Shown: positions 9,893 to 36,256 of the stretch, piece after piece
Position numbering within the stretch: position 1 is the first letter of the stretch
Layout: each line of letters opens with the position of its first letter
Assembly (NCBI GenBank): GCA_035509435.1
Contig: DATJLR010000001.1
Span: 58,732 to 122,731 of the forward strand
DNA length: 64,000 nt
From: Minisyncoccota bacterium
GTDB lineage: Bacteria; Patescibacteriota; Minisyncoccia; UBA6257; 2-01-FULL-56-20
Direction: 5' to 3'
Notes under the pieces: generated by a model
What the model was told of the DNA's origin: nothing
Databases searched by the model: none
Seen by the model: the letters and a program-made list of their open reading frames with translations, nothing else
Program-made: the position numbers and the translations under genes

Positions 9893-10859
9893 GCAGAAGG
9901 CAGAGCGCGAGCGGCCCGAGCAATATGCCGATCGGCCCGAAGAACGACAGGCCGCCGAGCACCGCAAACAGCATCAGCATCGGATGGACCTTCTCCTTTC
10001 CGCCCAGCAGGCGCGGGCGCATGTACGCCTCCATGATGGTGGATATGGCGAGCGACCAGACGGCAAGGCCGATGGCGGCGGGAACATTCCCCGTAAAATA
10101 TAACCACGCGACCGCGGGGATGACGACGAGATACACGCCGACGGCGGGGATGAACGACGCGACGATCGTGACGGCGCCCCACAACACCGCGCTCGAAACG
10201 CCGAACAGGGAAAATCCGATGCCGGTCGTAAGGCCGTAGAGCACGCCTATCAGAAGCGACCCGCGGATCACCGATCCCGCGCGCGCATGCAGGTGGTCAA
10301 GGATCTCGGTCATATGTTCCGGCGGCAATGGTCCCCGCTCGATAAGGGCGGTGCGCAGGCGATGCCCGTCGCGCAGGAAATAGTAGAGCGCGAAGAACGA
10401 AAGAAAGAGCGTGGCGACCACGCTCAAAAATCCGGAAAAGATCGGCCCGATGCTGCTGATCAAGAATCCGAGCACCTGCTGAAGGTACGGCTCGAGATTG
10501 AGGGTGAGCGACGGGAACCACTGCGCGAACGCGACGCGGAACCAGTCCACGCCCGACGCCCCTCCTCCGGAGACGATCTCCGCGTACAGCCCCTGCGCTT
10601 CCGCGAACATCTGGAGGCCGAGGAGCACGAGCGGCACGAGGATGATGAGGACGGCGAGGAGCACGACGATCGCGGCGGCCGTGCCGCCCCGGTCATGGAG
10701 CGCCCGCTTGAGCCCCGCATACCACGGCTGGAAGAGCACGGCGATGCTGATGCCGAGCACGATCGCGTTCAGCTCCGGCCAGAAGACGAGCGCCACGAGA
10801 AGCGCCGTCAGGATCAATATGCCGATCGAAAAATATGACTCCGAACGCTCCGTGACCAT
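9837..10859 (-). CDS. AI-2E family transporter (PerM/UPF0118)
   Basis: 340 aa, about 8 TM helices, and the characteristic C-terminal GxxGxxxGP region. Confidence 0.65.
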   Translation of the reverse strand: MVTERSESYFSIGILILTALLVALVFWPELNAIVLGISIAVLFQPWYAGLKRALHDRGGTAAAIVVLLAVLIILVPLVLLGLQMFAEAQGLYAEIVSGGGASGVDWFRVAFAQWFPSLTLNLEPYLQQVLGFLISSIGPIFSGFLSVVATLFLSFFALYYFLRDGHRLRTALIERGPLPPEHMTEILDHLHARAGSVIRGSLLIGVLYGLTTGIGFSLFGVSSAVLWGAVTIVASFIPAVGVYLVVIPAVAWLYFTGNVPAAIGLAVWSLAISTIMEAYMRPRLLGGKEKVHPMLMLFAVLGGLSFFGPIGILLGPLALCLLLTLLESYPLFSRSSPART

Positions 10860-19346: not shown

Positions 19347-19973
19347 ATGACGAGCGATAGGCAGGCCCCCACCAATACCACCGAGGCGACAAAGAGGAAT
19401 CCAGCAGGATTTCTGCTCGACGCCCTCGTGGTCGGATCGAGCAACGCGATTGAACTCCAGGTATCCCAGGGCCAGCGCGAGCTGGTGAACAGCACCACCC
19501 TTCCAACCCAGATGGGCGGTTGCAGGGATTACGACACGAAAAAAATCCTCGAAGCCGCCGGCGTCAAGTTCGGTGAAGTCGTGGAGGACGACGACCTGTT
19601 CCAATACGTGGAACTTCCGGCAGGATGGAAGAAAGTCTCCACTGATCACTCCATGCATTCGAACCTGGTCGACGACAAGGGTCGGGTGCGGGCGCGGATC
19701 TTCTACAAGGCGGCTTTCTACGACCGCAGAGCCGACCTGCAGTCGGAACGTCGGTTCGGAGCCAGCGTTGACTACGGGCGGCGCGAAAAAGAAGGAGTTG
19801 CCGTCGCGAACGTCACGGATTGCGGCAAGGTCATCTACTCCACCGAACCGGTCAAGCTGCCGGACGACGACCGAAAGAGTTACGAGGCGAGCGACAAGGC
19901 CCAGGCGGCTGCGTTCAAGTGGCTCGACAAGCACTATCCCGACTGGCGCAATCCCGGCGCATACTGGGATTAG
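19347..19973 (+). CDS. Hypothetical protein (208 aa)
   Basis: Strong promoter, RBS and downstream terminator. No recognizable motif. Confidence 0.55.
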   Translation: MTSDRQAPTNTTEATKRNPAGFLLDALVVGSSNAIELQVSQGQRELVNSTTLPTQMGGCRDYDTKKILEAAGVKFGEVVEDDDLFQYVELPAGWKKVSTDHSMHSNLVDDKGRVRARIFYKAAFYDRRADLQSERRFGASVDYGRREKEGVAVANVTDCGKVIYSTEPVKLPDDDRKSYEASDKAQAAAFKWLDKHYPDWRNPGAYWD

Positions 19974-20002
19974 CCAGCCCTCTGTACAAGTAAGGCCCCT
20001 AG

Positions 20003-20039
20003 GCGGCGATTTGCTTCACAGCAATCGCCGTCTTTTTTT
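20003..20039 (+). terminator. Rho-independent terminator
   Basis: GGCGATTGC-TTCACA-GCAATCGCC followed by GTCTTTTTTT. Confidence 0.7.
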
Positions 20040-20355
20040 GAGCGGATACACTCCTGGACATCGTGGAAGGCAAACCACACGTTCAACTCGCAGGGGTTGT
20101 TATTCCAACCCAACGCGATCGCATTGCCGCGGCAAACTCGATCCTTAAATGGGATACCGCGATGCTTTTCGTAGAGGCGCAGCTCAACATGATCGAAAGC
20201 CCCCAGACGATCGAGAAAAAACGGACGCGGGCCGTGATGCTCGTGGACGAAATTTCTGAAACGCGACACCTGAACCCTGCCCTAAAACACCCTCGAGCAG
20301 CACGTCGCTCTGCACGCCGACAACAAATGCAAAATCAGCCAGCACAAACTACCCC

Positions 20356-21147
20356 ATGATCACAGAAACGGACTATTCAAATTACATCATCGAGAACTTC
20401 CCCGACGTTACCGACCAATTCTCTGATAGAGATCATATAAGCGGTCTTTGTACGAACTGCGGGCGCGAAGTCGCGTTCGACATTACGAGTTATGGCGTCT
20501 CATATGTGAACCTTCCGCCGGTCTTTCCAGAAGAACCTCCTCAAAAAATGGCTGCGGGCAACCGACCGAGAACGATTATGTTCCGGTGCCCCATAAAGGG
20601 GTGCGGACACCTCAAGCTCTGGGTCGTGGTGGAGTTGGAGCTTTTGAAAGAGGGGTCAAAAAAGAGCGAGCGACACACCTATCTGTTGAACTCTATCCCA
20701 AACGAAAACGAAGAGATTGAAGGAGTACCCAATGACCCTCCTCAGCTTAAAGCCGCCTACAAAGAAGCAATACGTTGTCTCAATGCAAACGCGCCGATGG
20801 CCGCGGCGGCCATGTTTCGTCGGGCGTTGCAGGTAATCACGCGTGACATCCTCGGAGCAAAACCTGGTAAGCTCGCCAATGAACTCAAGGAACTGAAGGG
20901 CTCTACAAATCCGCTAGGCATCGCTCTCACAAACGACTTCTCCCAAAATGCCTATATCCTCAAGGAGGCCGGCAATCAGGGCGCACATCCCGACGATGAT
21001 CTCGACCTTCTCTCGTTCGATCCAGAAGACGCGGAGTATCTTCACCAGCTTTTCGCCGAAGTCGTCGCCGAGATTTTCGTCGCACCGGCAGCCGCAAAAA
21101 AGGCGCGGGAGGGATTTCTTAAAAAGCGGAAGATAACGGCACAGTAA
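20356..21147 (+). CDS. Zinc-ribbon plus DUF4145-domain protein
   Basis: N-terminal CTNCGRE...CPIKGCGH zinc ribbon. C-terminal AAAAMFRRALQ...ILKEAGNQGAHPDDD...DAEYLHQLFAEVV matches the DUF4145 pattern often fused to restriction or Abi proteins. Confidence 0.55.
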   Translation: MITETDYSNYIIENFPDVTDQFSDRDHISGLCTNCGREVAFDITSYGVSYVNLPPVFPEEPPQKMAAGNRPRTIMFRCPIKGCGHLKLWVVVELELLKEGSKKSERHTYLLNSIPNENEEIEGVPNDPPQLKAAYKEAIRCLNANAPMAAAAMFRRALQVITRDILGAKPGKLANELKELKGSTNPLGIALTNDFSQNAYILKEAGNQGAHPDDDLDLLSFDPEDAEYLHQLFAEVVAEIFVAPAAAKKAREGFLKKRKITAQ

Positions 21148-21151
21148 AAGC

Positions 21152-21496
21152 ATGGATCTGCCCAATAAGACGAGGAATGACGAAGTGAAGGCCGCCATCG
21201 ACCTACTTAAAAGCGGCAAATTAGATCTCGGAGCGTCGACCGAAAAACACATCGGGATCGCCAATGCGTTGGCCTCTCTCGACGTTGCAGAGTCCCTTCA
21301 AATCACATCTGTGCAGATCGAAGAGTCATCGTCGCAAGATAGAGTTGCGCTAAACACCGCCGTCCACGCGCTCATTTCATCAAACGAAAAACTGGCGGAG
21401 AGCAATAAAAAATATGCACGCGCCATGATGTGGCTAACGGGAGCCATCGTTCTCGTGGGCGTCGCGCAGATAATCGCCTCGTTCTTCGCCAAATAG
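21152..21496 (+). CDS. Small protein with a C-terminal TM helix (hypothetical)
   Basis: 114 aa. Lies 5 nt after the DUF4145 gene, so it is likely co-transcribed. Confidence 0.45.
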   Translation: MDLPNKTRNDEVKAAIDLLKSGKLDLGASTEKHIGIANALASLDVAESLQITSVQIEESSSQDRVALNTAVHALISSNEKLAESNKKYARAMMWLTGAIVLVGVAQIIASFFAK

Positions 21497-21500
21497 TATT

Positions 21501-22001
21501 ATGGCATCCAAAGAACGCCTCGAAAAAGCAGCCGCCGTCATCACGATCATCGGCTTCCCCGTAATCGCCGTCTCAATGCTTTTCGGCTTCTACCAACTCA
21601 AGGCAGCATCCGATCAACTGACCGCAATCCAGAAAGTAACAGCTTCACAAAATAATATCGCGCTCAACGCGGAGTTCTTCAACGATCCGACGAACATTGG
21701 CATCATCAATGACCTCTACAACAATACCCCGATCCTCGTGGAGCATGGCGGCCAATATAGTGATGCCCAGCTCGACAAATATCTTGGCGACTTCGACACA
21801 ATCAGCGACGCCTATGACGAGGGCTTCCTCTCGGAAGCGGATCTCTGTGACTCCTTCTCCTACTACATCGCGGCAACGATGCAGAATAAGGAGATCCAAA
21901 AATACATGACGGCGGAGGCCAAGCAGGACTCCAGCTTCTATGGCGGGTTGCCGGAACTCAGCTCGGACGTGACGAATAGCACCGATACGGATTGCCACTA
22001 A
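21501..22001 (+). CDS. Small protein with an N-terminal TM helix (hypothetical)
   Basis: 166 aa. Lies 5 nt after the previous gene. Confidence 0.45.
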   Translation: MASKERLEKAAAVITIIGFPVIAVSMLFGFYQLKAASDQLTAIQKVTASQNNIALNAEFFNDPTNIGIINDLYNNTPILVEHGGQYSDAQLDKYLGDFDTISDAYDEGFLSEADLCDSFSYYIAATMQNKEIQKYMTAEAKQDSSFYGGLPELSSDVTNSTDTDCH

Positions 22002-22018
22002 CGCGGGAGGCTACGCGA

Positions 22019-22074
22019 TTGACAATAGGGCATAAATAATGATATTATAATTCCACTTTCCGAGAGTCTCGGAA
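22019..22074 (+). promoter_or_regulatory. Promoter (TTGACA ... TATTAT/TATAAT) overlapping a perfect 17-bp palindromic operator, TTCCGAGAGTCTCGGAA
   Basis: TTGACA at 22019, a -10 at about 22043-22051, the palindrome at 22058..22074, then AGGAGG at 22096 and a GTG start at 22109. Confidence 0.6.
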
Positions 22075-22108
22075 GGCAGCTCTTCACAACAGAATAGGAG
22101 GTAGAGCA

Positions 22109-22426
22109 GTGGTGAGCAGCAGAGACAGAGTAGGCGCTGCAAGCACCGGTCTATCACAGGCAACTTTGGTAAGAGGCGTGGTAACGGCCGTTCATGAAGG
22201 AGGCGAAGGATTTGCTTCGACCTATCTTCATGATGCGATTGACGGCATCCCAGAAGGGACGCACATCACGTTTTCGCTGAAGGACTGGCAGGGCGGCAGT
22301 ACGCTGCCCCGCAAAGGACAGGTGGTCAGCTTAGAACAGATAACCCTCTTCGAGAAAGGTTGGCGGGCGCTGTGCGCCAAGCCGATCGGCATCGACGGAG
22401 GCAGACAGAGAGGAGCACGCAGATGA
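22109..22426 (+). CDS. Small hypothetical protein (GTG start)
   Basis: 105 aa. AGGAGG lies 7 nt upstream. Its stop overlaps the next gene's ATG (ATGA). Confidence 0.45.
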   Translation: MVSSRDRVGAASTGLSQATLVRGVVTAVHEGGEGFASTYLHDAIDGIPEGTHITFSLKDWQGGSTLPRKGQVVSLEQITLFEKGWRALCAKPIGIDGGRQRGARR

Positions 22427-23205
22427 GAGCCGAAGCAAGGGCGCAGGGACTTCCTAAGGGAAGCGCCATGGACTGCCTGAAGCATTACCTCGAGCAGCTT
22501 CCGTGGGGCGACCAGAGCTCCACCGAAGCGCGAAAACCCATGGCCGATTTTCTCGGAATCAACTCCGACTCGATCAGGCGGTGGTTCACCGGCGATACCC
22601 AGCCGAAAGGTTTGGTGCTCGTGAAGCTGCGGTATTTTCTGGAAGATCAAGGATACCGCATTGAAGAGCTCGAAGGACTTCAGCCGCTGGCGCGCCAATT
22701 GGGGAGACTCATTTCCAACGGCGTGATCAGCTACGAGGAAACGGCGAAGGAGCTCGGCTTCACCGAGGTCTCCGACATCCTTCGCGCGCTCCACGCGAAA
22801 GCCCCCTTCTCAAGCAAACAGATGGCGGGAATAGCGCGCATCTGTGCAGAGCATCCGCTGGAGGTCCAAGAAACCACCAGCGCACCCGCCATCGCGCTTT
22901 TGTCCCGTGCGGTCGCCCTCCAAGGGCAGGCGCGGAGCGCAATACGGGACCGGGTCGAGGAGGACATCATCCATCTTCTCGATGGCCTGAACGGGCTTTG
23001 CGCCGTCCTTGAGCCGCGACTCGAACACATGCTGTCGGACGGGTTTACGCCCGAACAACGGCAGGCGTTCCGGGAAAAGGCGGGGCGGCACCGCGTGTTC
23101 GATATGGCCAATCGCTTCTATCGGCTCAACAAGCAGCTGAATGCCCTGTGCAGCGAGAAAGCCCGCGAGATCACTTCAACCACGCCAACCCAGAACCAGA
23201 GATAG
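22423..23205 (+). CDS. Hypothetical protein with an N-terminal HTH-like segment (putative regulator or system component)
   Basis: ATGA translational-coupling overlap with the upstream gene. GINSDSIRRWFTGDTQP resembles an HTH. 260 aa from MRAEARAQ. Confidence 0.5.
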   Translation: MRAEARAQGLPKGSAMDCLKHYLEQLPWGDQSSTEARKPMADFLGINSDSIRRWFTGDTQPKGLVLVKLRYFLEDQGYRIEELEGLQPLARQLGRLISNGVISYEETAKELGFTEVSDILRALHAKAPFSSKQMAGIARICAEHPLEVQETTSAPAIALLSRAVALQGQARSAIRDRVEEDIIHLLDGLNGLCAVLEPRLEHMLSDGFTPEQRQAFREKAGRHRVFDMANRFYRLNKQLNALCSEKAREITSTTPTQNQR

Positions 23206-23217
23206 AGGGAGATCAAG

Positions 23218-24897
23218 ATGCAGACCGCAGAAAGCAGCAAGATCGACTTTCACCACGGACAAGCGCTCTTGCGGGTCGCCGGGCATTACCCGACGCTCGC
23301 GGAAGTTGTCTACGAGGCCGTCCAGAACGCTCTGGACGCCGACGCCACGAACATCAACGTGGCCATCAACCACAAGAAGCGGACGCTCACGGTGTCGGAC
23401 GACGGCGTGGGAACGACGCGGAGCCGCTTCGAGGACGCACTCCTCTCCGTGTGCAAGGGCATCAAGGACGGGGACAAGCTCGGCCAGTTCGGAATGGGCC
23501 TCATCGCCCCTCTCGGCAAGTGCCAGCGGTTCACGTTCATCTCCACGCCGAAGAGCAATCCTCGGGCCTACCTGCAGTGGACGTTCTCTACGGACGACAT
23601 CTGCGGGCAGGAGAAGATCGACGGCATTCCCGTCGAACCTTTGCCCGACCTGCACTTCGAACGCGAGGGGAGCCGCAGCGGCGTCGCGTGGCGCACCCAA
23701 GTGAAGCTTTACAACTTTACGAAGGACCGCCTGCTGAGCCGCATGACGGCGTCTTCCCTTCGGGAGGGCATCCTCGAGCGGTTCTCGACGGCAATGCGAC
23801 GCCGGGGCGTGACGGTCAACGTCGAGATCGTCTCCTCCGACGGAGAAGTTTCGGCGGAGAAGATCGTCGCTGACGTCTACGAAGGCAAGCGACTGCCGAT
23901 GGAGTACATTCGCGAGAAGGATGCGGGACAGACTACGTTCCAACTCTACATCGCGAAGAAAACCCAGAAGGGCCGCCGCGGCAAAGTGGTCATCGGGGAG
24001 TCCGGCAAGGATTTCACGATCAGCTTTGCGCAGTTCGCGAGCCACGCGGGGGAACTGCTTGACAGCGACGTCTGCGACGCTCTGGAGTCCGGCGTGTTCG
24101 AAGGGCAGATCTTCACCGAGAAGGCGAAGCTCGACCCGAACCGGCGGCATTTCATCGCCAACGACGCGCTCATGGGCCTCTGCATCGCCATCGACGAGTG
24201 GTATCGCAAAATCGGTGCGAGCCACATCGCGAAGGTGAAGGAAGAGGCGCAGGACGACCGCTACCAGCAGCTCGGCATGCGTTCCATGCGGGTGGTCGAG
24301 GGGCTTCTCGAACAACCGGCCTTCGCCTATCTGAAGGACGTCGTGAAGTCGTTCCGCATCGGTACGATCGGTACGCGGCACACTCGGCCCGATGCCAAAA
24401 TCATCGGGACACAGAGCGAGCCGTCGATCTCGATCGACGCGGCAAAGAGCAACGGCAACGGCGGGGGTGGCAACGGCGGAGGGGGTAGCGACCCGAAGTC
24501 GGAGCATCCCGGTCACACGCCCTACACCGTGAGCGGCCCGAAAGGACGCCAGCGGATGATGGTGCGTGGCAACAGTCAGGGCCTCCAATTCCTCTATGAG
24601 GAGATGGAAGGTTCTGACCGGCTCTGGGATCTCGACAGCAATGCGGGGGTCCTTCGCTATAACACACGCCACCCGCTGTGGGCCGAGTGCGAGTCAGATG
24701 AGCGTGCGCTCATGCGGTTTCAGGAGCACATCGCCATCACGGCACTCACCCTCGAAACGGTTCCGAAGGAATGGAAGGAGCAGCATCGCCGGATGACCGA
24801 CGACGCAATGCCTTCCATCGCTTTCTGGCTCCTCAAGGGTGACGAACTTGCAGGGCGCCGCGCGGGACGGCCGAAAGGTTCCGCTTCCGCGAAGTAA
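23218..24897 (+). CDS. GHKL-superfamily (MutL/MORC/Hsp90-like, HATPase_c_3-type) ATPase with an uncharacterized C-terminal domain
   Basis: Bergerat-fold motifs: N-box YEAVQNALDADATNI, G1 box VSDDGVGT, G2 box GQFGMGL. A Gly/Asn-rich linker NGNGGGGNGGGGSD precedes a roughly 120-aa C-terminal domain. Confidence 0.7.
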   Translation: MQTAESSKIDFHHGQALLRVAGHYPTLAEVVYEAVQNALDADATNINVAINHKKRTLTVSDDGVGTTRSRFEDALLSVCKGIKDGDKLGQFGMGLIAPLGKCQRFTFISTPKSNPRAYLQWTFSTDDICGQEKIDGIPVEPLPDLHFEREGSRSGVAWRTQVKLYNFTKDRLLSRMTASSLREGILERFSTAMRRRGVTVNVEIVSSDGEVSAEKIVADVYEGKRLPMEYIREKDAGQTTFQLYIAKKTQKGRRGKVVIGESGKDFTISFAQFASHAGELLDSDVCDALESGVFEGQIFTEKAKLDPNRRHFIANDALMGLCIAIDEWYRKIGASHIAKVKEEAQDDRYQQLGMRSMRVVEGLLEQPAFAYLKDVVKSFRIGTIGTRHTRPDAKIIGTQSEPSISIDAAKSNGNGGGGNGGGGSDPKSEHPGHTPYTVSGPKGRQRMMVRGNSQGLQFLYEEMEGSDRLWDLDSNAGVLRYNTRHPLWAECESDERALMRFQEHIAITALTLETVPKEWKEQHRRMTDDAMPSIAFWLLKGDELAGRRAGRPKGSASAK

Positions 24898-24963
24898 CCG
24901 CGCTTCACCTCCACCAGTAACAGCCGCCACCATCATTTATCATTCGGCGGCTCTCATTCATAC

Positions 24964-25000
24964 CCGGCCCGACAGGCATCATGCTTGTCGGGCTTTTTCA
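24964..25000 (+). terminator. Rho-independent terminator
   Basis: GCCCGACAGG-CATCATG-CTTGTCGGGC followed by TTTTTC. Confidence 0.65.
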
Positions 25001-25099
25001 TCTCGACTTCAACCACCCCTCGCGCTATGATGTAATCACAACTGAAAAGGATGCCTAAACCATCGCGGTAACGCGGTGGCATGGCGGAAGTGCACAAGT

Positions 25100-25143
25100 C
25101 CTACGAGGACAAAGAACCCATCACATGGGGCTGTCCTCGTAGG
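25100..25143. repeat. Perfect 12-bp inverted repeat (CCTACGAGGACA / TGTCCTCGTAGG) with a 20-nt spacer
   Basis: Read directly from the sequence. Intergenic, between the GHKL gene's terminator and the PH-SHOCT gene. Confidence 0.6.
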
Positions 25144-25246
25144 CCATGCCGGAAACGGCGTGGAGGGCGCAAGCTCTCACCCATGCGGTGGGTTCTTTGG
25201 TCGATAAGAAGCTCCTCCGCACGGGGAGCATTTCTATATCACCACC

Positions 25247-25405
25247 ATGAAAACACGAGACCAAATCAACGAACGCGTGAAGCACATTGACGGGACATTT
25301 CCTGGCGTCGCTGGCCCCACGCATATGCTCGCGATCGTCGTAGAGCTCCTCCTCGACATCCGCAGCCAGCTTGAGGAGCTACTCAAAGCCGAAGACGCAA
25401 AATAA
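25247..25405 (+). CDS. Possible small protein (52 aa), below the ORF-track threshold
   Basis: ATG...TAA ORF giving MKTRDQINERVKHIDGTFPGVAGPTHMLAIVVELLLDIRSQLEELLKAEDAK. Ends 11 nt before the next gene. Confidence 0.25.
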   Translation: MKTRDQINERVKHIDGTFPGVAGPTHMLAIVVELLLDIRSQLEELLKAEDAK

Positions 25406-25416
25406 CAGAAACCGAT

Positions 25417-26076
25417 ATGGGTATCTTCACCAGTAAGGCAAGGGAGCGAGAAAAACTCAAAGCCACACTCATTCCATTGATCGCAGAGAAGGATAAGTTC
25501 CTCAAGGACGCGGTAGCGATGAAGCGTATCCCCACGATCACGCCACCGGCCTCTCTCATTCTCGAAAAAGACGAACGCCTCATCCTCGCTGATCCCACGA
25601 CGCTTCGAGAGGCGCGAGCGGTACGCGAAAGCAGCGGCGGCTTCGGGAGCGTGCGCGTGGGTCACGCAAGGATTGGCAGTTATAGCGGAACCTCTTTCAG
25701 CACGCTCAAATGGGCTGACCTCGACAAGGGATCGCTCTACCTCACCAACCATCGCCTCATTTTCCAGGGCAACAAAGAAAATCGGATCATCCCCCTCAAG
25801 AGCATCTCAGCGCTCCAACCCATCCCCTTCGGAACAATCAGTATGAGTGTTGTGAATAAACCCAAAAATATGCAATTCCCCGTGAGAAACCCATACCTCT
25901 GGGAAGCCGTCACGAAAATCGAACGGACATCACTCGGCGACAACATTGTGCTGAAAAAAGCCCAAGCACAAAACGGCAATCTCGATGATCTCGAAAAGCT
26001 CGCCGACCTCAAGGGAAAAGGCATCATCACCGATGACGAGTTCGCAGCGAAGAAGAAGCAGATCCTAGGGCTTTAA
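25417..26076 (+). CDS. Bacterial PH-like domain plus C-terminal SHOCT-domain protein
   Basis: C-terminal LEKLADLKGKGIITDDEFAAKKKQILGL is a typical SHOCT motif. The middle resembles bPH/YokE-like folds. Confidence 0.5.
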   Translation: MGIFTSKAREREKLKATLIPLIAEKDKFLKDAVAMKRIPTITPPASLILEKDERLILADPTTLREARAVRESSGGFGSVRVGHARIGSYSGTSFSTLKWADLDKGSLYLTNHRLIFQGNKENRIIPLKSISALQPIPFGTISMSVVNKPKNMQFPVRNPYLWEAVTKIERTSLGDNIVLKKAQAQNGNLDDLEKLADLKGKGIITDDEFAAKKKQILGL

Positions 26077-26117
26077 GGCATCTCCACTTCGGCAAGGTAA
26101 TGGCATAGAATGGTGTC

Positions 26118-27962
26118 ATGGCAGAACCGACCAATCCAGAAGAACTCCTTGAGGCCCTCAAACTACTCCAAGCCGTGGAGGCAGATGATCCCGAGGTCAT
26201 AAAAAAATATCGCTACGTCATCTACGCACGAAAATCGACGGACGAGAAAGACAAACAACAACGCTCACTCGGCGACCAAGTGCGCGAGTGCGAGGAGTTC
26301 GCTGGATATAACAATCTGACGATCGCGAAAATCATCGAGGAGTCCGAGTCCGCTAAAGAGCCAGATATTCGGCCGAAGTTCCGCACTATGATGAACGATG
26401 TGGCCGCGGGCAAATACCAAGGCATCATCGCGTGGCATCCCGATCGCCTCTCCCGCAACATGAAAGAGGCAGGCGAAATCATCGACCTACTCGACAAGGG
26501 CATCATTAAGGATCTCAAGTTCAAGAGCTTCACCTTCGTGAATGATGCGAGCGGCAAGATGACGCTCGGCATCACCTTTGTGCTCGCAAAACAATACTCC
26601 GAGCAACTCGGGGCAAATATCGCGCGCGGCAACAAGCGCAGCATCGAAGAAGGAAAATATCCGAACAGAACAAAACCTGGTTATTACAAAGACGGAGACG
26701 GGCGCCTCCGTCCCGATGGACAGAACTTCATCCTCATCAAGCGGGCATTCCAAATGCGCCTCGAAGGTGCGACGTGCGAAAAAATTGCGGACTTTCTCAA
26801 TGAGAACGGATACCAGAGATGGAATAAAGACGGCACGCATACGCCATTCAAGATGAGCGTCAGACGGGTCTATGACTTCATGCTCGATCCGGCTTACGCC
26901 GGCGTCATCGTTTACGGCAAGAAGGGCGGCGGGGTCAACCTCATGAAGGAATACGACTTCCAACCAGCGATCTCCGTTCCCGACTTTATGAAGATCAACA
27001 ACCTGACCGATCGAAGCCAGGTTCTCCGACTTGCGCGAAAATATCGCCGTCACGAAGACGTGCGAGCGGATCTCATGCGAGGCATGGTCTTCTGCTCGAA
27101 ATGCGGGGAAAACATGGGTCCAGGCATAACAGCCAAGAAGAACGTGTCGGGCCCCAAGAACTATCTCTACTACCGATGCACCACGCCGGATTGTCCGCGC
27201 AAGGGAAAGTCCACACGGGCGCGAGTGATTACTGACTATATCCTCGACTTCCTGGCTCAAAAACCGTTCTCCTCCCGACGGGCCTATGAGCACTATGCCG
27301 AAGAAATGCCTCGCGTGGCGGCCGAGCGAGAGCGAAACCTCCGCACTCTCCTCGTGGAGAAAAAGACCGAGCGGACGCGACTTGAGAACAAAATGGCGAA
27401 AATACGCGACCGGCTCCTTGAGATCGGCAAAGACGAGAAAATCGCCCAGGATTACCAGGGTGATCTTGCTGCGGGCGAGAAGGATCTCAAGGGGCTGGAG
27501 GGCGAAATAGGCCAGATTGAGCGAAAATTAAAGGCCAGCAAGGCCGCAATCCTCACCTACGAGCAATTCCTCGAACTATGGGAAAAGACCCCGAAGATAC
27601 TGGCTAAAATGAAACCGCTCACCCAAAAGGACGCGATCATCCGAAAAATGTTCTCGAACTTCACGGTAAGCGCAAAAAATGTAGAGAAAATGGAGCTCGC
27701 AGAGCCGTTCAAGGCGCTCTGCGACCCCAAATTGCTGGGGGGTGGAGATCGAAGTGCGTTATATAAATTCCTTCTTCATTCCTTCTTCGCGCCTTTCTTA
27801 TACTGTCGCCAAGCTCCAAAACTGAGCACTACAGTTAATAAAACTGCCGAGGCCCACCGGAAAAAAATATCGCTATTGAGCCGATCACTTGGCGGTACAT
27901 CGGTGGTATTTATTGATGGATCGGCCGGTAGATATACTACTTCTACGCCTTGCCCTACCTGA
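26118..27962 (+). CDS. Large serine recombinase (resolvase/integrase family) 1. The C-terminal ~60 codons are possibly non-native.
   Basis: YVIYARKSTDE (catalytic Ser), HPDRLSRN and a recombinase domain with a zinc-ribbon region (CSKCGENMG...CTTPDCPRKGK) and a coiled coil. The 3' end extends into the AT-rich block and overlaps an antisense gene. Confidence 0.8.
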   Translation: MAEPTNPEELLEALKLLQAVEADDPEVIKKYRYVIYARKSTDEKDKQQRSLGDQVRECEEFAGYNNLTIAKIIEESESAKEPDIRPKFRTMMNDVAAGKYQGIIAWHPDRLSRNMKEAGEIIDLLDKGIIKDLKFKSFTFVNDASGKMTLGITFVLAKQYSEQLGANIARGNKRSIEEGKYPNRTKPGYYKDGDGRLRPDGQNFILIKRAFQMRLEGATCEKIADFLNENGYQRWNKDGTHTPFKMSVRRVYDFMLDPAYAGVIVYGKKGGGVNLMKEYDFQPAISVPDFMKINNLTDRSQVLRLARKYRRHEDVRADLMRGMVFCSKCGENMGPGITAKKNVSGPKNYLYYRCTTPDCPRKGKSTRARVITDYILDFLAQKPFSSRRAYEHYAEEMPRVAAERERNLRTLLVEKKTERTRLENKMAKIRDRLLEIGKDEKIAQDYQGDLAAGEKDLKGLEGEIGQIERKLKASKAAILTYEQFLELWEKTPKILAKMKPLTQKDAIIRKMFSNFTVSAKNVEKMELAEPFKALCDPKLLGGGDRSALYKFLLHSFFAPFLYCRQAPKLSTTVNKTAEAHRKKISLLSRSLGGTSVVFIDGSAGRYTTSTPCPT

Positions 27963-28237
27963 ATAGCTTGGCAATCTAAGCTATTATCTGAGGAATCATA
28001 TTGTTGTCCTCCAACACTAAATTCATATGAGTAAGACGCGTGATTGGCACAATCGATACTGGTAATGGCTCCCTGTGTAGCTTTGCCATTCTTAAGTAAT
28101 TGCTCGTATTTGTTTATATCCGAAGATGTTACTAAGAACAAAATTCCGTAGACGAAAAGGAAAATACATATTGCCAAGATGATCGAGTAAAGAAGCTTTA
28201 CTCTTGAGGAAGGCTTATCTATTTCTGCTGTATTCAT
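27776..28237 (-). CDS. Small membrane protein (N- and C-terminal TM helices, DUF3592-like topology)
   Basis: 153 aa. Last gene of the minus-strand KAP operon. Its 3' region overlaps the recombinase-1 3' end. Confidence 0.45.
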   Translation of the reverse strand: MNTAEIDKPSSRVKLLYSIILAICIFLFVYGILFLVTSSDINKYEQLLKNGKATQGAITSIDCANHASYSYEFSVGGQQYDSSDNSLDCQAIQVGQGVEVVYLPADPSINTTDVPPSDRLNSDIFFRWASAVLLTVVLSFGAWRQYKKGAKKE

Positions 28238-28266
28238 GCCTTAACTATATCTAAGGTTTGGTTTTA

Positions 28267-28848
28267 TTAGTTCGGCTTTGTGTGAGTTACTGCATCATAA
28301 ACATCCATGAAATTGCTAGTTCCCAGCTCTTGAATGCTGATATTTTGAATAGGAACTTTAACCGTTAGGCCGTTCATAGTATTGATCCACAAAAGCAGGG
28401 TGCCTGAATAAATTGAACTGCTTTGTTCAGTCGTTGTAAAAAATATGTTATAGAGATCAAGAGTCGAAGAGTTTTGTGGGAATCCTAATTCTGCTATTAC
28501 CGGATGAAGATCTATATTGATGGAATTATCTGGAAAGATAGTCTGCTGAATTGGAAATAGAACAGTTTTACCACTTATCGAAGCTTCATCAACATAAATG
28601 GAAGATTCTCCGTGGTTGGTCAAGGTTAAAAGTAATTTTTGACTATCAAATGTTTCGCCGATACTCGGACTGAAGTATTTTAAATAACTAAGGTCCCGCA
28701 GTTGAGAATTAATCGCTCCTTGCTGTAAATCAATAGCTATCTGCATGGCTCCTAAAAAAAGTGCCACCACAACAGGAATGAAGAACTTCAAGAAATCAAA
28801 CCAATTATTTCTCCACCACTCCTTCAGCTTAGGCAATGCATTGTTCAT
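28267..28848 (-). CDS. Hypothetical protein with an N-terminal TM anchor
   Basis: 193 aa. Starts 32 nt downstream of the KAP NTPase stop. Confidence 0.45.
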   Translation of the reverse strand: MNNALPKLKEWWRNNWFDFLKFFIPVVVALFLGAMQIAIDLQQGAINSQLRDLSYLKYFSPSIGETFDSQKLLLTLTNHGESSIYVDEASISGKTVLFPIQQTIFPDNSINIDLHPVIAELGFPQNSSTLDLYNIFFTTTEQSSSIYSGTLLLWINTMNGLTVKVPIQNISIQELGTSNFMDVYDAVTHTKPN

Positions 28849-28879
28849 TTTTTTAAACCAATTGGAATAATAGGTGCAA

Positions 28880-31687
28880 CTATTCCTTGATTAATTCCTC
28901 AACTTGAGATTCTGCCAATATCCTTGGATTATGACCGACGAAAGCTTTTATGGCTTTTTTAAAATTCTCATCCCGATTCTCCAATGTTTTTAGATTGGCA
29001 AAAAATGTGTCAGATGCATCCGAGGGCAAACCAATACTCTTTATCGCTTCCAGCCATCGCCGCAAAACAGTATCGTCCGGAATTTCATTGTGTCGGTTGA
29101 TAATATTGCGAACGACATCAACCTTAAACCTAGAATTCCCTTGGAATTCATCTGGAAAATCATAATGGATATACTCCAAGAAATCGAAAAGTAGAGGAAG
29201 GGGCTTCCCATTCAAATTATTAACGATGCCGCCCTTCTCGGCCTCGCTAAATTCTTTTGCCGGAAATTTTACCTCAGTGAGTAAATCGAGAGTTTGATAT
29301 GTGCGCCTGATCAAATCCTCTCGAATTTCCCTGTCAATCTGAAAAAGCTTTGTATTTGCTATCGCCTCTAAGATATTCTCTGGAGTATTTGCGGTTGTCT
29401 CTATGAATTGCCTAAGGCAACCATTAATTTCGTTAAGGAGTGGGTTACCTTCAAAACGAATCCGTAGTAAAATTTTTACAATTAAAACTCGCATCCCCCA
29501 ATCTCCGTAAGTATTATAAAGCGCCAGAACCTGACTCGAGAAAGACCTCAATTGAGTATTAGAGACTTCAGGAGTAAGTTGTGATAGTTTAATTTTTTCG
29601 GCAAATTCCAAAGCTGCCAATAATACTTTTTCAGCATAAACCGTCTGGACGGGTTGATACTGCATGAGAAAAAAGAGTTGCCACAGAATTGGCCCATACA
29701 AAAGTGGTGTAAATGGCTTTTCTTCAGTTAAGAATTTTAATAGTTTCTCCAGTGTGGCAACCTGCTCTTCTCCTAATTGCCCCGGAAAAACAACTTCGCC
29801 CTTTAAATGATTTAAAACATTGGCCTTTGCTTGCGCTAGCTCTTTATTAAAAGGAGCAAATGCAGTCCAAGCGTTAGGTGAACTTACAAGGGAAAAAAGC
29901 TCTATGGGATCATTGACATTTTTATTTATTTCCTCAGGTCGAGACGCAATAGAATTTAAAAAGTGAGCAAAATTTTTCGCTATCGTATTTTGAGTCTTCC
30001 GGTGGAGACTAGAGAAACCTTCGTTAAATATTCTCGAAAAATCTATCTTATCTTCCACTGGTAAAAATCCCTCAGGTCTAATAAGCTCAAAAATCCTTTC
30101 AAGAAATTGCTCGAAGGCAACAAGATTGTCCTTATCAAACAAGCTATGAATTGAAACAAAAACATTGGTAAGCTTATCGATTTTATGTTCGTTATGTCGT
30201 ACATAATTTGATAACAACCCTTGAAATTCAGTCATTCCATCTACCTCGACAATCTTTTCATAAATTTTCTTCAATGCCTCCGTATCAATATTCTCGGCCG
30301 CAGTAATAAAGCTCTCCCATTCTGGAACCTTTTTTTGTTCTGGCGTTTCCTTGAGTGAGAAAAATAAATTGGCGCGTTCATCTGAAACCGTTGTTGTGGT
30401 ATTTATAAAATTTGAGAAGTCTTCGTCCCTAAATCTCTGATCATTAGAAAATGACCACGCTATAATTTGATCCAGCGAATCTGATGTCCTTAATACTTTT
30501 GCCTCAAGAATTTTATATAGTTCTGGCCACTTGGTTCTTATGACTAATATTTTCGCTAAAAATGGAATTTTTTCTTTATCTAAAATGTATTCCATATTCC
30601 TCTGCTTAGCCAAGAGGTATTGAGCCGTAAGGGAATTTAGGAATTGGATAATCTCACGGGGATTATTTCTGAAGGCCCGGCTTATAATAAAAACCAGCGA
30701 ACTATTACCTTGAAAATCAGCTACTTTTGTTTTGATAATATTTTTCGATATATAGTTATCGAGTTCAAGATCCAATAAGCGCGGGATCCTGATAGAGAGG
30801 TTAAAAAACTTTCTTAAAAATTCTTCCGTATCAAAATCCTCGCCGAAAGTTCCTCGAAGTTGATCGTTTATAGCCTGGTCATCACAAGGGATAAGGAAAA
30901 TAGCTCCAACGCCTTCCGCTGTTTTTTCATTAGCCAAAAAAGTTTTGATATCGCTCAGTAATGCGACAGCCTTCTCTTTGTCCAATCGATCAAGATTATC
31001 AATTATGATAAGTATCTTGTCTTTTAGCTTCTTGAGCGCTTCACTATAATAATATTCAAAACCTTCAGCAGAATCGGTTCGAGGAGTCTCGACATTTATT
31101 TGAGATATATCAACGATATTCGCCAAAAACTTATATATAACCGCAAAGATGCCTAGCGTAAGTATGGCGGATATACCCTTCTGTGCCAAAGCGGCAAAAG
31201 CTTGATCAAATCCAAAATTCCAAATCCATTGATTAACAGCAAAAAGGGCGAGGAGAAAAAGTAACGTGACAACGACGGGGACAAAAATCTTTACGATTAT
31301 TTTGTCAAAGCTACTTTTTAAACTCTCTATCAAGGAGAAGGTCCTAGGAACTGTTAGTGATTGATTTAATGTTTCCTTATAGCGAAGCGATCCTTGAAAG
31401 ATGTCTTTATCAAACTCAATAAGAAACTGGCGTCGAAAAGAGTCGCGTTCATATTTCCAAGTATCAAAATAAAAAACCTTGCTCCCTTCAGCAACGAGAT
31501 GATCCCGTAATAGATAACAGATAGAGCTTTTGCCAGAGCCCCACTGTCCATAAAGTCCGATCGTAAGCGGCGCGGGACTTTTAATATATATTTCCTTGAT
31601 CTGCTCAGCAATATCTGAATAGCCGAAATGATCAGCATCATTCCTTCCGAGGGGAGCATCCTTTATAATCTCAAATTCATTGCTCAT
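28880..31687 (-). CDS. KAP-family P-loop NTPase (935 aa)
   Basis: Walker A GQWGSGKSS. Two TM helices inserted into the P-loop domain (IFVPVVVTLLFLLALFAV..., AILTLGIFAVIYKFL), the KAP hallmark. Walker B ILIIIDNLDR. Long alpha-helical C-terminal region. Confidence 0.75.
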   Translation of the reverse strand: MSNEFEIIKDAPLGRNDADHFGYSDIAEQIKEIYIKSPAPLTIGLYGQWGSGKSSICYLLRDHLVAEGSKVFYFDTWKYERDSFRRQFLIEFDKDIFQGSLRYKETLNQSLTVPRTFSLIESLKSSFDKIIVKIFVPVVVTLLFLLALFAVNQWIWNFGFDQAFAALAQKGISAILTLGIFAVIYKFLANIVDISQINVETPRTDSAEGFEYYYSEALKKLKDKILIIIDNLDRLDKEKAVALLSDIKTFLANEKTAEGVGAIFLIPCDDQAINDQLRGTFGEDFDTEEFLRKFFNLSIRIPRLLDLELDNYISKNIIKTKVADFQGNSSLVFIISRAFRNNPREIIQFLNSLTAQYLLAKQRNMEYILDKEKIPFLAKILVIRTKWPELYKILEAKVLRTSDSLDQIIAWSFSNDQRFRDEDFSNFINTTTTVSDERANLFFSLKETPEQKKVPEWESFITAAENIDTEALKKIYEKIVEVDGMTEFQGLLSNYVRHNEHKIDKLTNVFVSIHSLFDKDNLVAFEQFLERIFELIRPEGFLPVEDKIDFSRIFNEGFSSLHRKTQNTIAKNFAHFLNSIASRPEEINKNVNDPIELFSLVSSPNAWTAFAPFNKELAQAKANVLNHLKGEVVFPGQLGEEQVATLEKLLKFLTEEKPFTPLLYGPILWQLFFLMQYQPVQTVYAEKVLLAALEFAEKIKLSQLTPEVSNTQLRSFSSQVLALYNTYGDWGMRVLIVKILLRIRFEGNPLLNEINGCLRQFIETTANTPENILEAIANTKLFQIDREIREDLIRRTYQTLDLLTEVKFPAKEFSEAEKGGIVNNLNGKPLPLLFDFLEYIHYDFPDEFQGNSRFKVDVVRNIINRHNEIPDDTVLRRWLEAIKSIGLPSDASDTFFANLKTLENRDENFKKAIKAFVGHNPRILAESQVEELIKE

Positions 31688-32014
31688 CGAATTAGCTTAA
31701 CTCCAATAATGCCGGATTTTTACTGAAAAATAAAGAGCTCGTCAAACAATCTGCGATTGGGAACTCCTGATCGGATTTACAAGCAAAATCGCTTATCTTA
31801 TAGTTAATCCACAACTAAATAGGGTTGCCTAAACTCAGCAATTTGCAGGGCATGGCACATAGAAAACCGATGAAGGCAGAAAGCTCTCAATCAGAGCCAC
31901 CTTCATCGGTCATATCTGGAAACGGATATGGGTCGCAAGACCAGCTGGTTGGGAGCTTTCTGGCATAAAACTCTCAACCGGCCCTAAAGGTCGGTTTTCG
32001 TTTTAAATAAAACC

Positions 32015-32254
32015 ATGAATTTAAACTCACTTCCAAGACATCAAAAGACAAAGATGTTCGTTATCGCTAACCGCAAACATTTCTTTGCGGATGGCATCAT
32101 AAAGAAAGACCTAGAAGAAGCGGAGTATAAAAGACTGGGGCTTCCGGCTCCTCTCTATGCCATGTACGGAAAATATATTCCCGGCAAAAGCTACACACTT
32201 GATCCTATGGCGGACAGCATCGGAGAAATGCAGAGCAGAATAATTATCTGGTAA
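32015..32254 (+). CDS. Hypothetical small protein
   Basis: 79 aa in the AT-rich block, 5 nt before the next gene. Confidence 0.3.
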   Translation: MNLNSLPRHQKTKMFVIANRKHFFADGIIKKDLEEAEYKRLGLPAPLYAMYGKYIPGKSYTLDPMADSIGEMQSRIIIW

Positions 32255-32258
32255 AACT

Positions 32259-32714
32259 ATGGAACAAAAACCGAAAGGCAAATTGCTTGATTGGCTGAAC
32301 CATCATCCTGTCATAACTATCGTGATGATCATGTTCGTCATCGGCATAGTCGGCGTAACGGCAGAGGCAATTGCGGGGCAAGGATCATCAACAACCTCCA
32401 ATAGCGACCTTCAAGCTACTGTCGAAACAACGAATGATGGCATCTCCATTACCAATCTCGAAAGCGACTCATGGCAATCGTGTGAAGTTGGAGTAAATGG
32501 CGGATGCGGATTCAATTTCGATAATCCTCCCTATCAGAGCCATATTTCATTCGATCTTGCAGGAGGAGCTAGCACCACTATTCCCTACAGCACGCTTACG
32601 AGCGCAGATGGCACTCGGTTCGATATAACTACCCACGCAGTGAACTCGATTGTCATCATGTGTTCGATGGGAGCAAACGATCGGACGGAAAGAAGCTTCT
32701 GTGGGATGCAGTGA
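32259..32714 (+). CDS. Hypothetical membrane-anchored or secreted protein
   Basis: 151 aa with an N-terminal TM or signal anchor and a Ser/Thr/Gly-rich, Cys-containing ectodomain. Confidence 0.35.
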   Translation: MEQKPKGKLLDWLNHHPVITIVMIMFVIGIVGVTAEAIAGQGSSTTSNSDLQATVETTNDGISITNLESDSWQSCEVGVNGGCGFNFDNPPYQSHISFDLAGGASTTIPYSTLTSADGTRFDITTHAVNSIVIMCSMGANDRTERSFCGMQ

Positions 32715-32777
32715 AAATTTTTATACCGCTATCTTCTAGGAATTGCCGGCAGAAAGCTTACCTTGCGGTATTAAAGA

Positions 32778-33230
32778 TTATGCCGAATGATCTGTCGATT
32801 TTTCGCTCTGTTTCTTTTTTACTATCGCCAAAAAATAATCCAGAACTTCTCCCTCGTTTAAATGCTCAGCGATTAAATTTTGGATTTGCTTTACCAGTCC
32901 CCACAAGAGCAAGAAGAAAAGCACGATGGCGATAAAATCGAAAATAGGCCCTTTCGGTTTATATTGAATAATAATATCGGCAAATATATTTCCAAAAATT
33001 CCGAGCAGAAGGCCGAGCACTAAAGTGTAAAGGGTTTGCCTCAAATTTCTATTATCATCGAGAATCTTATTGATCTCAAAGCTCTTAGGAGTTCTAAAGT
33101 CATAAAATTCATCGACGACCGCCTTTTGATCTTCAGGGCTAAGGCTGTTCCACTTCTCTACGTCGGAAGATCTTAGCCTATCTGCAATTTCCTTCTTGTC
33201 TTCTCTTATCCGTTTCTCTTTCGTTTCCAT
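32778..33230 (-). CDS. Hypothetical membrane protein
   Basis: 150 aa with a charged N-terminus and two TM helices. Confidence 0.35.
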   Translation of the reverse strand: METKEKRIREDKKEIADRLRSSDVEKWNSLSPEDQKAVVDEFYDFRTPKSFEINKILDDNRNLRQTLYTLVLGLLLGIFGNIFADIIIQYKPKGPIFDFIAIVLFFLLLWGLVKQIQNLIAEHLNEGEVLDYFLAIVKKKQSEKSTDHSA

Positions 33231-33283
33231 ATTGCCTTATATCTTAGAGCATTATCTGGCTGTATCAAGTAGTCATACAAACA

Positions 33284-33396
33284 GCTCTTTTTGAGCGCAA
33301 AAGGGCTCTTTTTTGGCACTTTTCGGCGCTAAAAAGGAGTTTTCACAGCTTAAGCGCGCTTTTTTAATACGCGTCAGTTTTGGCACTTTTAATTTC
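33284..33396. repeat. Cluster of short direct repeats (TTTTGGCACTTTT x2, GCTCTTTTT x2) and small palindromes
   Basis: TTTTGGCACTTTT at 33311 and 33378. GCTCTTTTT at about 33285 and 33304. GCGCGC...GCGCG also present. Confidence 0.5.
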
Positions 33397-33575
33397 AAGC
33401 AGGCTCAAAGAAGACACATCCGCTTGATGACATCAGGACGGAAGAAATGGACTAAACAACAATCAGCGTATTTGTGCGAAGTATAAAAGAGGACATCAAA
33501 TGTGTCCCAGCAAAAACGCGGATAATGCGCGAATAACATCCGCGAACAAAACTCAATCGCTATTTTTTTGTTATT

Positions 33576-33596
33576 TAATCCACAGAAATATCCACA
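33576..33596. promoter_or_regulatory. Two DnaA-box-like 9-mers (TAATCCACA, ATATCCACA), each 8/9 match to TTATCCACA
   Basis: Seen directly, 12 bp apart, 60-80 bp upstream of the wHTH gene. Confidence 0.35.
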
Positions 33597-33658
33597 TTCA
33601 AGCACCAACCTATCGTCCTCGTGCGAGAATAGGTTCACGCCAAAATTAAATCGCGCAA

Positions 33659-34048
33659 ATGAAACTTAAACCTACCGGAAATTTTATGCTGCTACCGAAA
33701 GAACTCGTTTCCAGCCATCTGAAATTACTCGGCACCAGAGACTTCTCCGTCCTGCTGGCCCTTTGGTACCTTCACCACTCCTATTCGACACCTTGTCCGT
33801 GGATAACGGACGAGCGGCTCTCGAACGACTTCGGCTTCAGCAAGAAGAATCTCCAGCGATCAAGGAAGCGACTCAAGGAAAATGGCTTCATCGACTACAA
33901 AATCGGCTACCGGATCGGAAACCACGCAAGAGCAACGCGTTATCTCCTCGTCCCTGATGCCAAGATCCGCGCCTCATTCCGTATCCCTGACGAGCCAAAG
34001 TGGCTACCTGCTCGGCAAGGACATAGGAAGCCAAATAGACCACCTTAA
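33659..34048 (+). CDS. Winged-helix DNA-binding protein (possible replication initiator or regulator of the element)
   Basis: ITDERLSNDFGFSKKNLQRSRKRLKENGFIDYK is a wHTH-like segment. Confidence 0.4.
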   Translation: MKLKPTGNFMLLPKELVSSHLKLLGTRDFSVLLALWYLHHSYSTPCPWITDERLSNDFGFSKKNLQRSRKRLKENGFIDYKIGYRIGNHARATRYLLVPDAKIRASFRIPDEPKWLPARQGHRKPNRPP

Positions 34049-34111
34049 TTAAGAATTGTACCTAAGAATGCAAATAGCAATTAACTTCGTTAATAAATTT
34101 TTTTCAAACAA

Positions 34112-34606
34112 ATGGCAATTAGACTCTACCACCAAAAGCTTAAGGCCTTCGACGAATATCTCGCTCACAAAGGAATACACCGAGGAAAAGTTCAGACGCT
34201 GGTCGAATTTTACCGATTCTTGAACGGTCAACTCGACACACCCACGTGGACGTTCCCCTTCTCGCGCCACTTGAAAGCCGCGCAGAAAATCCTCATTTGG
34301 TCCCAAGACGACCTCGCTAAAGCGAAAGGGTTCATCTTTGACTGCTGGTATCACTACCATAGACGATACCCAAACTGGAATCTCGACACAGCCTACAGAA
34401 ATATCCCACTTCTCTATGACGCAGAAAAAAATCAGATCGAGCACGCGCACCAGACTCTTAGCGGTTCAGAAAAGCTGGGCTTACTGGAGGCAATTACTCA
34501 GGCAAGGTCGGCCGCTTGGAGCGCGCGCGTTGACGATGACGAAGAACGCGCAATGATCGCCAAGGCAAAAGAGGATTTTCTCCACTCCTTAGAAACCGGA
34601 GACTAG
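34112..34606 (+). CDS. Hypothetical protein upstream of the integrase (possible accessory or directionality factor)
   Basis: 164 aa with no motif. The RDF idea rests on position only. Confidence 0.35.
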   Translation: MAIRLYHQKLKAFDEYLAHKGIHRGKVQTLVEFYRFLNGQLDTPTWTFPFSRHLKAAQKILIWSQDDLAKAKGFIFDCWYHYHRRYPNWNLDTAYRNIPLLYDAEKNQIEHAHQTLSGSEKLGLLEAITQARSAAWSARVDDDEERAMIAKAKEDFLHSLETGD

Positions 34607-34727
34607 TCTCTTATATTTAACATGCAACGGAACATTGAGAACCAGGATCAGGGATCAGCCGCAATCGATCGCCTCGCCGAGATCCTGATTCTCATTGCAA
34701 TTTCCCTGCAAGAAAAAAAGGAATAAT

Positions 34728-36248: not shown

Positions 36249-36256
36249 GAGTCCGG

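Follow-up and report, generated by a model that had tools for sequence, protein, structure and literature searches.

We analysed a 64,000-nucleotide (nt) stretch of contig DATJLR010000001.1 (assembly GCA_035509435.1, forward-strand positions 58,732 to 122,731) from a Minisyncoccota bacterium of the Patescibacteria, hereafter the window, in which positions are counted from the first letter. A preliminary description of positions 20356-26076 had read seven genes there as one candidate, undescribed defence system, and its open reading frames (ORFs), spacings and motifs are all present where it had placed them. Our analysis trims this hypothesis to three co-travelling genes, here called D, E and F, which together with their promoter and terminator make up the single conserved unit of the region (about 22019-24998), restricted to Patescibacteria. 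The unit is laid out as follows.

22019-22048, plus strand: sigma-70-like promoter (TTGACA, 18 nt, TATTAT, with an upstream TG)
22059-22075: 17-base-pair (bp) palindrome TTCCGAGAGTCTCGGAA, a TTCCGA-N5-TCGGAA inverted repeat at about +3 to +20
22109-22426, plus strand: D, 105-amino-acid (aa) soluble protein with a GTG start, first gene of the cassette
22423-23205, plus strand: E, 260-aa Xre-type helix-turn-helix (HTH) protein, overlapping D by ATGA
23218-24897, plus strand: F, 559-aa MutL/MORC-class GHKL ATPase (HATPase_c_3, 4e-14)
24966-25002, plus strand: intrinsic terminator (13-bp-stem structure with 8 G-C pairs at 24966-24994, T tract)

A pattern search of 185,579 species genomes, one genome per species, returned 37 loci encoding F, and the proteins of the window were compared with all ORFs of these loci. 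Nearly all of the loci belong to Patescibacteria, the few others being short contigs in metagenome-assembled genomes of other phyla, and every named full-length homologue of F is from Patescibacteria; a word search with F gave 41 clusters. We found E directly upstream of F in 36 of the 37 loci (34 by BLAST, 36 after clustering), and in most of them E ends 1-4 nt inside F or just before it. A homologue of D lies directly upstream of E in 14 loci (about 40%). Six further close copies of the cassette, L041-L046, consist of D-E-F or E-F within unrelated flanks, with D present in L043-L046. The remaining genes of the window behave differently. The upstream DUF4145 gene and the two membrane-protein genes behind it (A, B and C), a 52-aa ORF, the downstream SHOCT and recombinase genes (G and H) and three upstream genes occur in none of the 37 loci; A, B, C, G and H stand beside none of the six close copies, and no gene downstream of F is conserved across loci. 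Three relatives of A (L038-L040, 40-51% identity) stand by themselves, with neither B nor C nor a GHKL gene beside them. The second operon of the preliminary description is thus a genuine, conserved set of genes, with no function assigned to it, and the DUF4145 gene and the membrane-protein pair do not belong to this set. Since A, B, C, G and H are never found with F, the locus is a mosaic of three separate modules: A (together with B and C), D-E-F, and G-H. The core of the cassette is the tightly coupled E-F pair, with D as an accessory gene. In L030 the D homologue (6748-7020) lies on the strand opposite to E-F; co-transcription with the pair is therefore not a constant feature of D.

The DNA itself marks the limits of the cassette. 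Homology to the close copies begins near 22000 and, against L041 (F 89% identical), stops at 24997, which is the terminator. In the comparison with L043, DNA identity climbs from 0.38 left of 21990 to 0.79-0.90 across the promoter region and D, drops to 0.56-0.67 in the first two thirds of E, recovers to 0.81-0.93 in the C-terminal hairpin of E and in F, and decays past the terminator. D-E-F is therefore a discrete promoter-to-terminator cassette. Copies whose F is 84-89% identical (the window, L041, L043/44 and L046) have no flanking ORFs in common. A tblastn search with F was negative for both the phage collection (50,697 records) and the plasmid collection (72,556 records), IMG/VR contained no relative, and we rejected a phage or plasmid origin of F on the lack of matches in these three collections. 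In L012 (6702-9915), D-E-F sits exactly between tRNA-Val (6702-6777) and tRNA-Arg (9843-9915).

The promoter of D-E-F agrees with consensus at 11 of 12 positions and is the top promoter match within 19900-26200; both of its hexamers are kept in the 89%-identical copies L043-L045. The palindrome at 22059-22075, previously described as an operator within the promoter, is indeed present. However, it lies just 3' of the promoter -10 and therefore overlaps the likely transcription start, outside the promoter spacer. When the upstream 130 nt were shuffled, an arm as long as that of the palindrome arose in only 1.5% of the trials. We regard the repeat as a candidate operator that E would bind. In L043-L045 the outer half-sites TTCCGA...TCGGAA are retained and the inner palindrome pairs are lost; because the half-sites outlast the inner positions, a protein operator appears to fit slightly better than an RNA stem, either being possible. 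The palindrome is not found in L001, and no common palindrome lies upstream of the 37 cassettes, so that we rejected a universal operator for the cassette family.

F has the hallmarks of a GHKL (Bergerat-fold) ATPase, namely an N-box ExxxNxxD, a G1 box DxGxG and a G2/ATP lid, and the S5 transducer domain directly behind the GHKL domain is that of the MutL/MORC/topoisomerase clade. The three motifs had been reported as intact, and E33/N37/D40, D61-G63-G65 and G89/G94 proved invariant among 34 homologues. GHKL ATPases have no Walker motif, and the N-box and G1 box are the relevant sites for mutation. In the AF2 model of F (predicted local distance difference test, pLDDT, 85), a 49-residue helix (316-364) and a disordered Gly/Asn linker (411-424) precede a folded C-terminal domain (430-545) of five strands and three helices, which bears out the earlier account of a Gly/Asn linker followed by a C-terminal domain without a family. 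A basic S5 loop, KKTQKGRRGK, and a basic C-terminal tail are also present. The fold of F matches MutL, MORC and SMCHD1, and against BFVD we obtained generic GHKL folds only (topoisomerase, rIIA, Hsp90). The C-terminal domain had no sequence match in Pfam or the PDB (10 diverse domains, Pfam E-values up to 10), no PD-ExK pattern was seen in it, and HExxH occurs in 0 of 34 F sequences. A profile of the domain recovered 377 representatives among 1.84 billion proteins, all with one architecture in which the domain is C-terminal in a protein of about 550-600 aa; its conserved polar residues are R446, S453, N482, H485, Q502 and E503. Judged by its motifs and its model, F is probably an active MutL/MORC-type ATPase.

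E is an Xre/cro-C1 protein by its five-helix HTH_3 fold and its ...W..G...P... signature, and its HTH domain resembles those of antitoxins (HigA, MqsA), C-proteins, Aca, ImmR and CapH. A profile word search with E returned 12 proteins only, and E has no STAS match. In the model of E (pLDDT 78), the HTH is followed by a second helical region, then by a disordered linker (148-176) and finally by a C-terminal helical hairpin (174-253), the last helix of which is the most conserved stretch of the protein. Compared with L043, E is a mosaic: positions 22433-22969, covering the HTH and linker, have 56-67% DNA identity, whereas D, F and the hairpin of E reach 79-93%, and the synonymous divergence (dS) is 1.34 for E versus 0.51 for D and 0.47 for F. 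This contrast in dS and identity suggests that the HTH-bearing part of E has been swapped or is diversifying while the hairpin stays with F, so that E would join an exchanged or diversifying specificity part to a constant part facing F. For D, the ratio of nonsynonymous to synonymous divergence against L043 is 0.23; searches of Pfam, the PDB and PADLOC with D gave no match, and hhalign showed no relation of D to E or F. Together, these results define a lineage-restricted mobile operon with a MutL/MORC-type ATPase, clear limits, a candidate operator, catalytic residues and a modular partner.

We next compared the cassette with described systems. Searches of Pfam, PADLOC, NCBIfam and PHROGs gave domain-level matches only, and no curated family covers the cassette, in agreement with the earlier view that the operon matches no named defence system. 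The prokaryotic MORC/paraMORC families are characterized by operons with superfamily II helicases, restriction-fold or HNH nucleases and methylases (Iyer, Abhiman and Aravind 2008; PMC2292703). Like these proteins, F begins with a GHKL domain whose ATP motifs are intact, followed by an S5 domain and a family-specific C-terminal extension (PMC2292703), and it is sporadic and laterally mobile; the MORC/paraMORC proteins are proposed to be ATP-driven engines for DNA clamping or looping. Unlike them, the D-E-F cassette is confined to Patescibacteria and partners F only with an Xre HTH protein and, in some loci, the 105-aa protein. Neither a nuclease nor a helicase nor a methylase was a conserved partner of F in the 37 loci or in a census of 116 of their neighbours. 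We therefore did not assign F to the MORC/paraMORC group linked to restriction-modification, as only E and D recur beside it.

MutL proper was rejected because TIGR00585, which has a cut-off of 180 bits, scored 28.9 and aligned with residues 27-74 only. NCBIfam MutL models in general reached at most 29 bits against cut-offs of 180-840, F has neither MutL_C nor DQHA(X)2E(X)4E, and its partner is an HTH protein rather than MutS. F shares a Bergerat-fold ATPase domain with MzaB, TmtA and the GHKL-Shedu protein VcSduA, and none of these systems accommodates it: MzaB (NF041932) scored 23.3 bits against 850 and PADLOC gave no Mza matches, Tiamat TmtA (a model of about 1500 aa) matched at E = 8e-5 over F residues 30-94 only, that is, at the level of the GHKL domain, and a GHKL-Shedu of type I-D (VcSduA-like) was dismissed as the Pfam search and the conserved residues gave no sign of a DUF4263 PD-(D/E)xK nuclease domain at the C-terminus of F.

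Two further comparisons concern gene organization. As in HipBA, HipBST and HigBA, the upstream gene encodes an HTH protein and is coupled to the next by translation, an inverted repeat stands at the promoter, the mobile cassette is small, and one version has three genes, among them one for a protein of about 100 aa. Whereas HipS corresponds to the N-terminal subdomain of HipA, D shows no relation to F, and F is a MutL/MORC-type ATPase rather than a HipA-type kinase or an RNase. D-E-F fits a type II toxin-antitoxin system by gene layout only. CapK/CapS pairs a GHKL kinase of the anti-sigma/STAS type with a repressor substrate and regulates immune operons (PMC13373217). D-E-F likewise encodes a GHKL-superfamily protein beside a putative DNA-binding repressor. 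However, the transducer domain of F is of the S5 type known from MutL/MORC, E is an Xre HTH protein without STAS and no conserved operon follows F; with these partners and domains missing, we rejected membership in CapK/CapS.

We favor, with a probability of about 0.4, the reading of D-E-F as an autoregulated conflict module that is built around a MORC-like DNA clamp and would act in an abortive-infection/defence-like or a toxin-antitoxin-like way. This reading draws on the coupling of the HTH gene to a larger enzyme gene, the inverted repeat across the transcription start, the sharp limits, near-identical copies in different contexts and a partner protein that is half variable and half constant, a combination typical of such modules; we also counted rarity and lineage restriction (41 clusters; 377 representatives in 1.84 billion proteins) in its favor. 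As to mechanism, we infer operator binding by E, contact between E and F, and DNA clamping by F. A dimer of E would bind TTCCGA-N5-TCGGAA over the transcription start and repress the operon, while its C-terminal hairpin would dock on F, probably on the F C-terminal domain, and hold the ATPase inactive. The faster-evolving N-terminal part of E might sense a trigger, which could be foreign DNA, a foreign protein or the loss of E itself. Upon the trigger, the GHKL domains of an F dimer would close on ATP, as in MutL and MORC, and the closed dimer would clamp or compact DNA, using its basic S5 loop and its basic C-terminal tail. Replication or transcription, the invader's or the cell's, would then be blocked. 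No nuclease, helicase or methylase takes part in this proposed mechanism.

Patescibacteria, also known as the candidate phyla radiation (CPR), are a very large and mostly uncultured radiation with tiny genomes. Few immune systems are recognized in them (PMC12366544). A narrower and more doubtful version of the conflict-module reading is that D-E-F is an undescribed immune system of Patescibacteria, in which an Xre sensor/repressor with a swappable N-terminal part licenses a nuclease-free MORC-like clamp to silence or block invading DNA. If so, prokaryotes would have in this cassette a counterpart of MORC-type silencing, and this in a phylum with very few known defence systems. A defensive role of any form would extend bacterial immunity by a mechanism based on a GHKL clamp without a nuclease, and would shed light on how MORC-type silencing is rooted in prokaryotes.

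Several observations weigh against a conflict module. The two nearest neighbours on each side of the cassette in the 37 loci, which form the census of 116, are mostly from housekeeping families (for example uvrC, alaS, clpB, dnaE, parAB, RNase J, a penicillin-binding protein, an M50 protease and FtsA). In raw counts, a few of these neighbours match PADLOC defence models (such as mad3/8, SspH, PDC-S01, LmuB and AbiLi), and several matches of this kind are housekeeping paralogues, as with DolB/ClpB. The copies L024/25/28, which are 66-72% identical, have 10-13 flanking ORFs in common, and L026/27 have 38. The cassette thus both relocates and, in some clades, is inherited vertically at syntenic sites. 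Moreover, no effector domain such as a nuclease, a TIR domain or a pore-former was recognized in the cassette, and the inverted repeat is kept among the closest copies only.

The main rival explanation is that E-F is a lineage-specific chromosomal factor for DNA transactions, in which the HTH protein recruits a MORC/MutL-like clamp for nucleoid organization, silencing, replication/segregation or repair and plays no part in conflict. The mainly housekeeping flanks and the syntenic sites kept within clades speak for it, as do the absence of F from the phage, plasmid and IMG/VR collections and the match of its fold to MutL, MORC and SMCHD1, all of which act on chromosomal DNA. In addition, 5 of the 37 loci (L016, L022, L024, L025 and L028) have dnaE, encoding the alpha subunit of DNA polymerase III, no more than 8 kb from E-F, and in L022 F is directly followed by parA, parB and dnaE. 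However, the cases of dnaE proximity amount to only about three independent events. For a core function, the family is also very rare and patchy (37 loci in 185,579 species genomes by the pattern used; 377 representatives), nearly identical copies with sharp boundaries stand in unrelated contexts, the window copy lies in a recombinase island, and F falls short of MutL by its score (29 bits against 180) and by the lack of a MutL C-terminal domain. A chromosomal clamp is unlikely in our estimation, and somewhat less likely than a conflict module, since the family is rare, patchy and demonstrably relocating. If this explanation were true, the cassette would represent a rare MutL-like clamp recruited by a sequence-specific HTH protein.

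That D-E-F is a purely selfish toxin-antitoxin system resembling HipBA/HipBST, with E as labile antitoxin and autorepressor, F as toxin and D as modulator, stabilizing its carrier DNA with no role in phage defence, seems improbable to us. It would account for the upstream HTH gene translationally coupled to a larger enzyme gene, the inverted repeat at the promoter, the small mobile unit with close copies in varied contexts, the faster evolution of E than of F and the likeness of the E HTH to HigA and MqsA. However, F is large at 559 aa, and so, for an antitoxin, is E at 260 aa; the cassette was not found on plasmids or phages, and in some clades it is stably inherited beside housekeeping genes. 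To our knowledge, no MutL/MORC-class GHKL ATPase acts as a toxin.

Slightly less probable still is a regulatory switch, in which F is an ATP-dependent, chaperone- or kinase-like modulator of the repressor E and gives signal-responsive control of its own and nearby genes, much as in CapK/CapS or ImmA/ImmR. The GHKL superfamily includes kinases and Hsp90, the HTH of E resembles those of ImmR and CapH, and a GHKL kinase with a repressor substrate has a precedent in the regulation of immune operons (PMC13373217). Against this, F carries the S5 domain of the MutL/MORC/topoisomerase clade rather than the form of an anti-sigma kinase, E lacks STAS, the HExxH motif is missing from all 34 F sequences, and a terminator rather than a conserved target gene lies behind F. 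The weakest explanation, one undescribed defence system formed by the DUF4145, two membrane-protein, D, E, F and SHOCT genes, has in its favor tight packing on one strand inside an island and a weak PD-T7-4-like match of the DUF4145 protein, but we rejected it as very improbable because these genes never co-occur (A, B, C, G and H with F in 0 of 37 loci and 0 of 6 close copies; relatives of A without B, C or F), the units have their own promoters and terminators, an RNA of the LOOT family separates F from G, and G+C content differs between the blocks.

The other features of the region are listed below.

20356-21147, plus strand: A, zinc-ribbon and DUF4145 protein (Pfam DUF4145, 5.5e-10)
21152-21496, plus strand: B, single-transmembrane protein with a C-terminal hydrophobic helix
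21501-22001, plus strand: C, single-transmembrane protein with an N-terminal hydrophobic helix
25052-25178, plus strand: LOOT RNA copy 1 (Rfam RF03000; 70.1 bits against a gathering score of 46.4; model positions 1-121)
25417-26076, plus strand: G, PH/GRAM-like and SHOCT protein (SHOCT 2e-8, GRAM 1e-4; phrog_2700 2e-15)
26118-27962, plus strand: H, large serine recombinase/integrase with Resolvase, Recombinase and Zn_ribbon_recom domains (phrog_95 integrase, 5e-71)
28880-31687, minus strand: 935-aa KAP-family P-loop NTPase
31826-31942, plus strand: LOOT RNA copy 2 (Rfam RF03000; 80.7 bits against 46.4; model positions 1-121)
34695-36248: second large serine recombinase, its stop 9 nt from the 3' end of the transfer-messenger RNA (tmRNA) gene
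36257-36574, minus strand: tmRNA (ssrA)

In A, four cysteines form a zinc-ribbon-like CxxC...CxxxxC motif. The protein matches phrog_1305 (2e-24) over almost its whole length, and a tblastn search with A against the phage records found no match despite this profile match; the PADLOC model PD-T7-4 matches partially (E = 1.6e-5, model positions 65-181 of 211), essentially over the DUF4145 part. Gaps of 4 nt from stop to start separate A from B and B from C. B and C have no family match in Pfam, PADLOC, NCBIfam or PHROGs, and by their distribution are window-specific companions of A. Ahead of A, a 316-nt gap (20040-20355) follows the terminator behind the gene at 19347-19973; no promoter match was found in this gap, and its only ORF, of 99 aa (19970-20269, minus strand), is without a family match.

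In this window, D-E-F lies in a recombinase-bounded island beside the DUF4145 and KAP-NTPase genes. A tmRNA-associated island had been proposed before, and the tmRNA gene at 36257-36574 and the two large serine recombinases, at 26118-27962 and 34695-36248, support this context. Positions 27776-36250 form a block of low G+C content (0.36-0.47, against about 0.58), which also holds a DUF3592 protein and several ORFs without a family match; ending at the tmRNA gene, the arrangement looks like tandem islands at ssrA. Repeats short enough to be expected by chance were all that a search for att sites of the island returned. The 3' end of H overlaps the minus-strand DUF3592 ORF (27776-28237) by 187 nt at the drop in G+C, and the 15-mer AAAAAAATATCGCTA is repeated exactly, at positions 26201 and 27861; the H ORF may read across an element junction.

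LOOT RNA copy 1, which the preliminary description had missed, sits between the D-E-F terminator and the SHOCT/recombinase block. The two copies are the only ones within the 64 kb, and each is followed downstream by a set of small genes with a large serine recombinase gene at its end. No LOOT RNA was found beside 20 other E-F loci. This distribution suggests that LOOT RNA belongs to the recombinase-borne elements. A pattern scan of IMG/VR for LOOT gave 117 matches, which is about the chance level by a rough estimate for a 16-base pattern with a variable gap. Just past the tmRNA gene, a bPH_2 protein is encoded at 36894-37511 on the minus strand, and with the PH/GRAM-like protein G inside the island, two PH-like proteins flank the island region.

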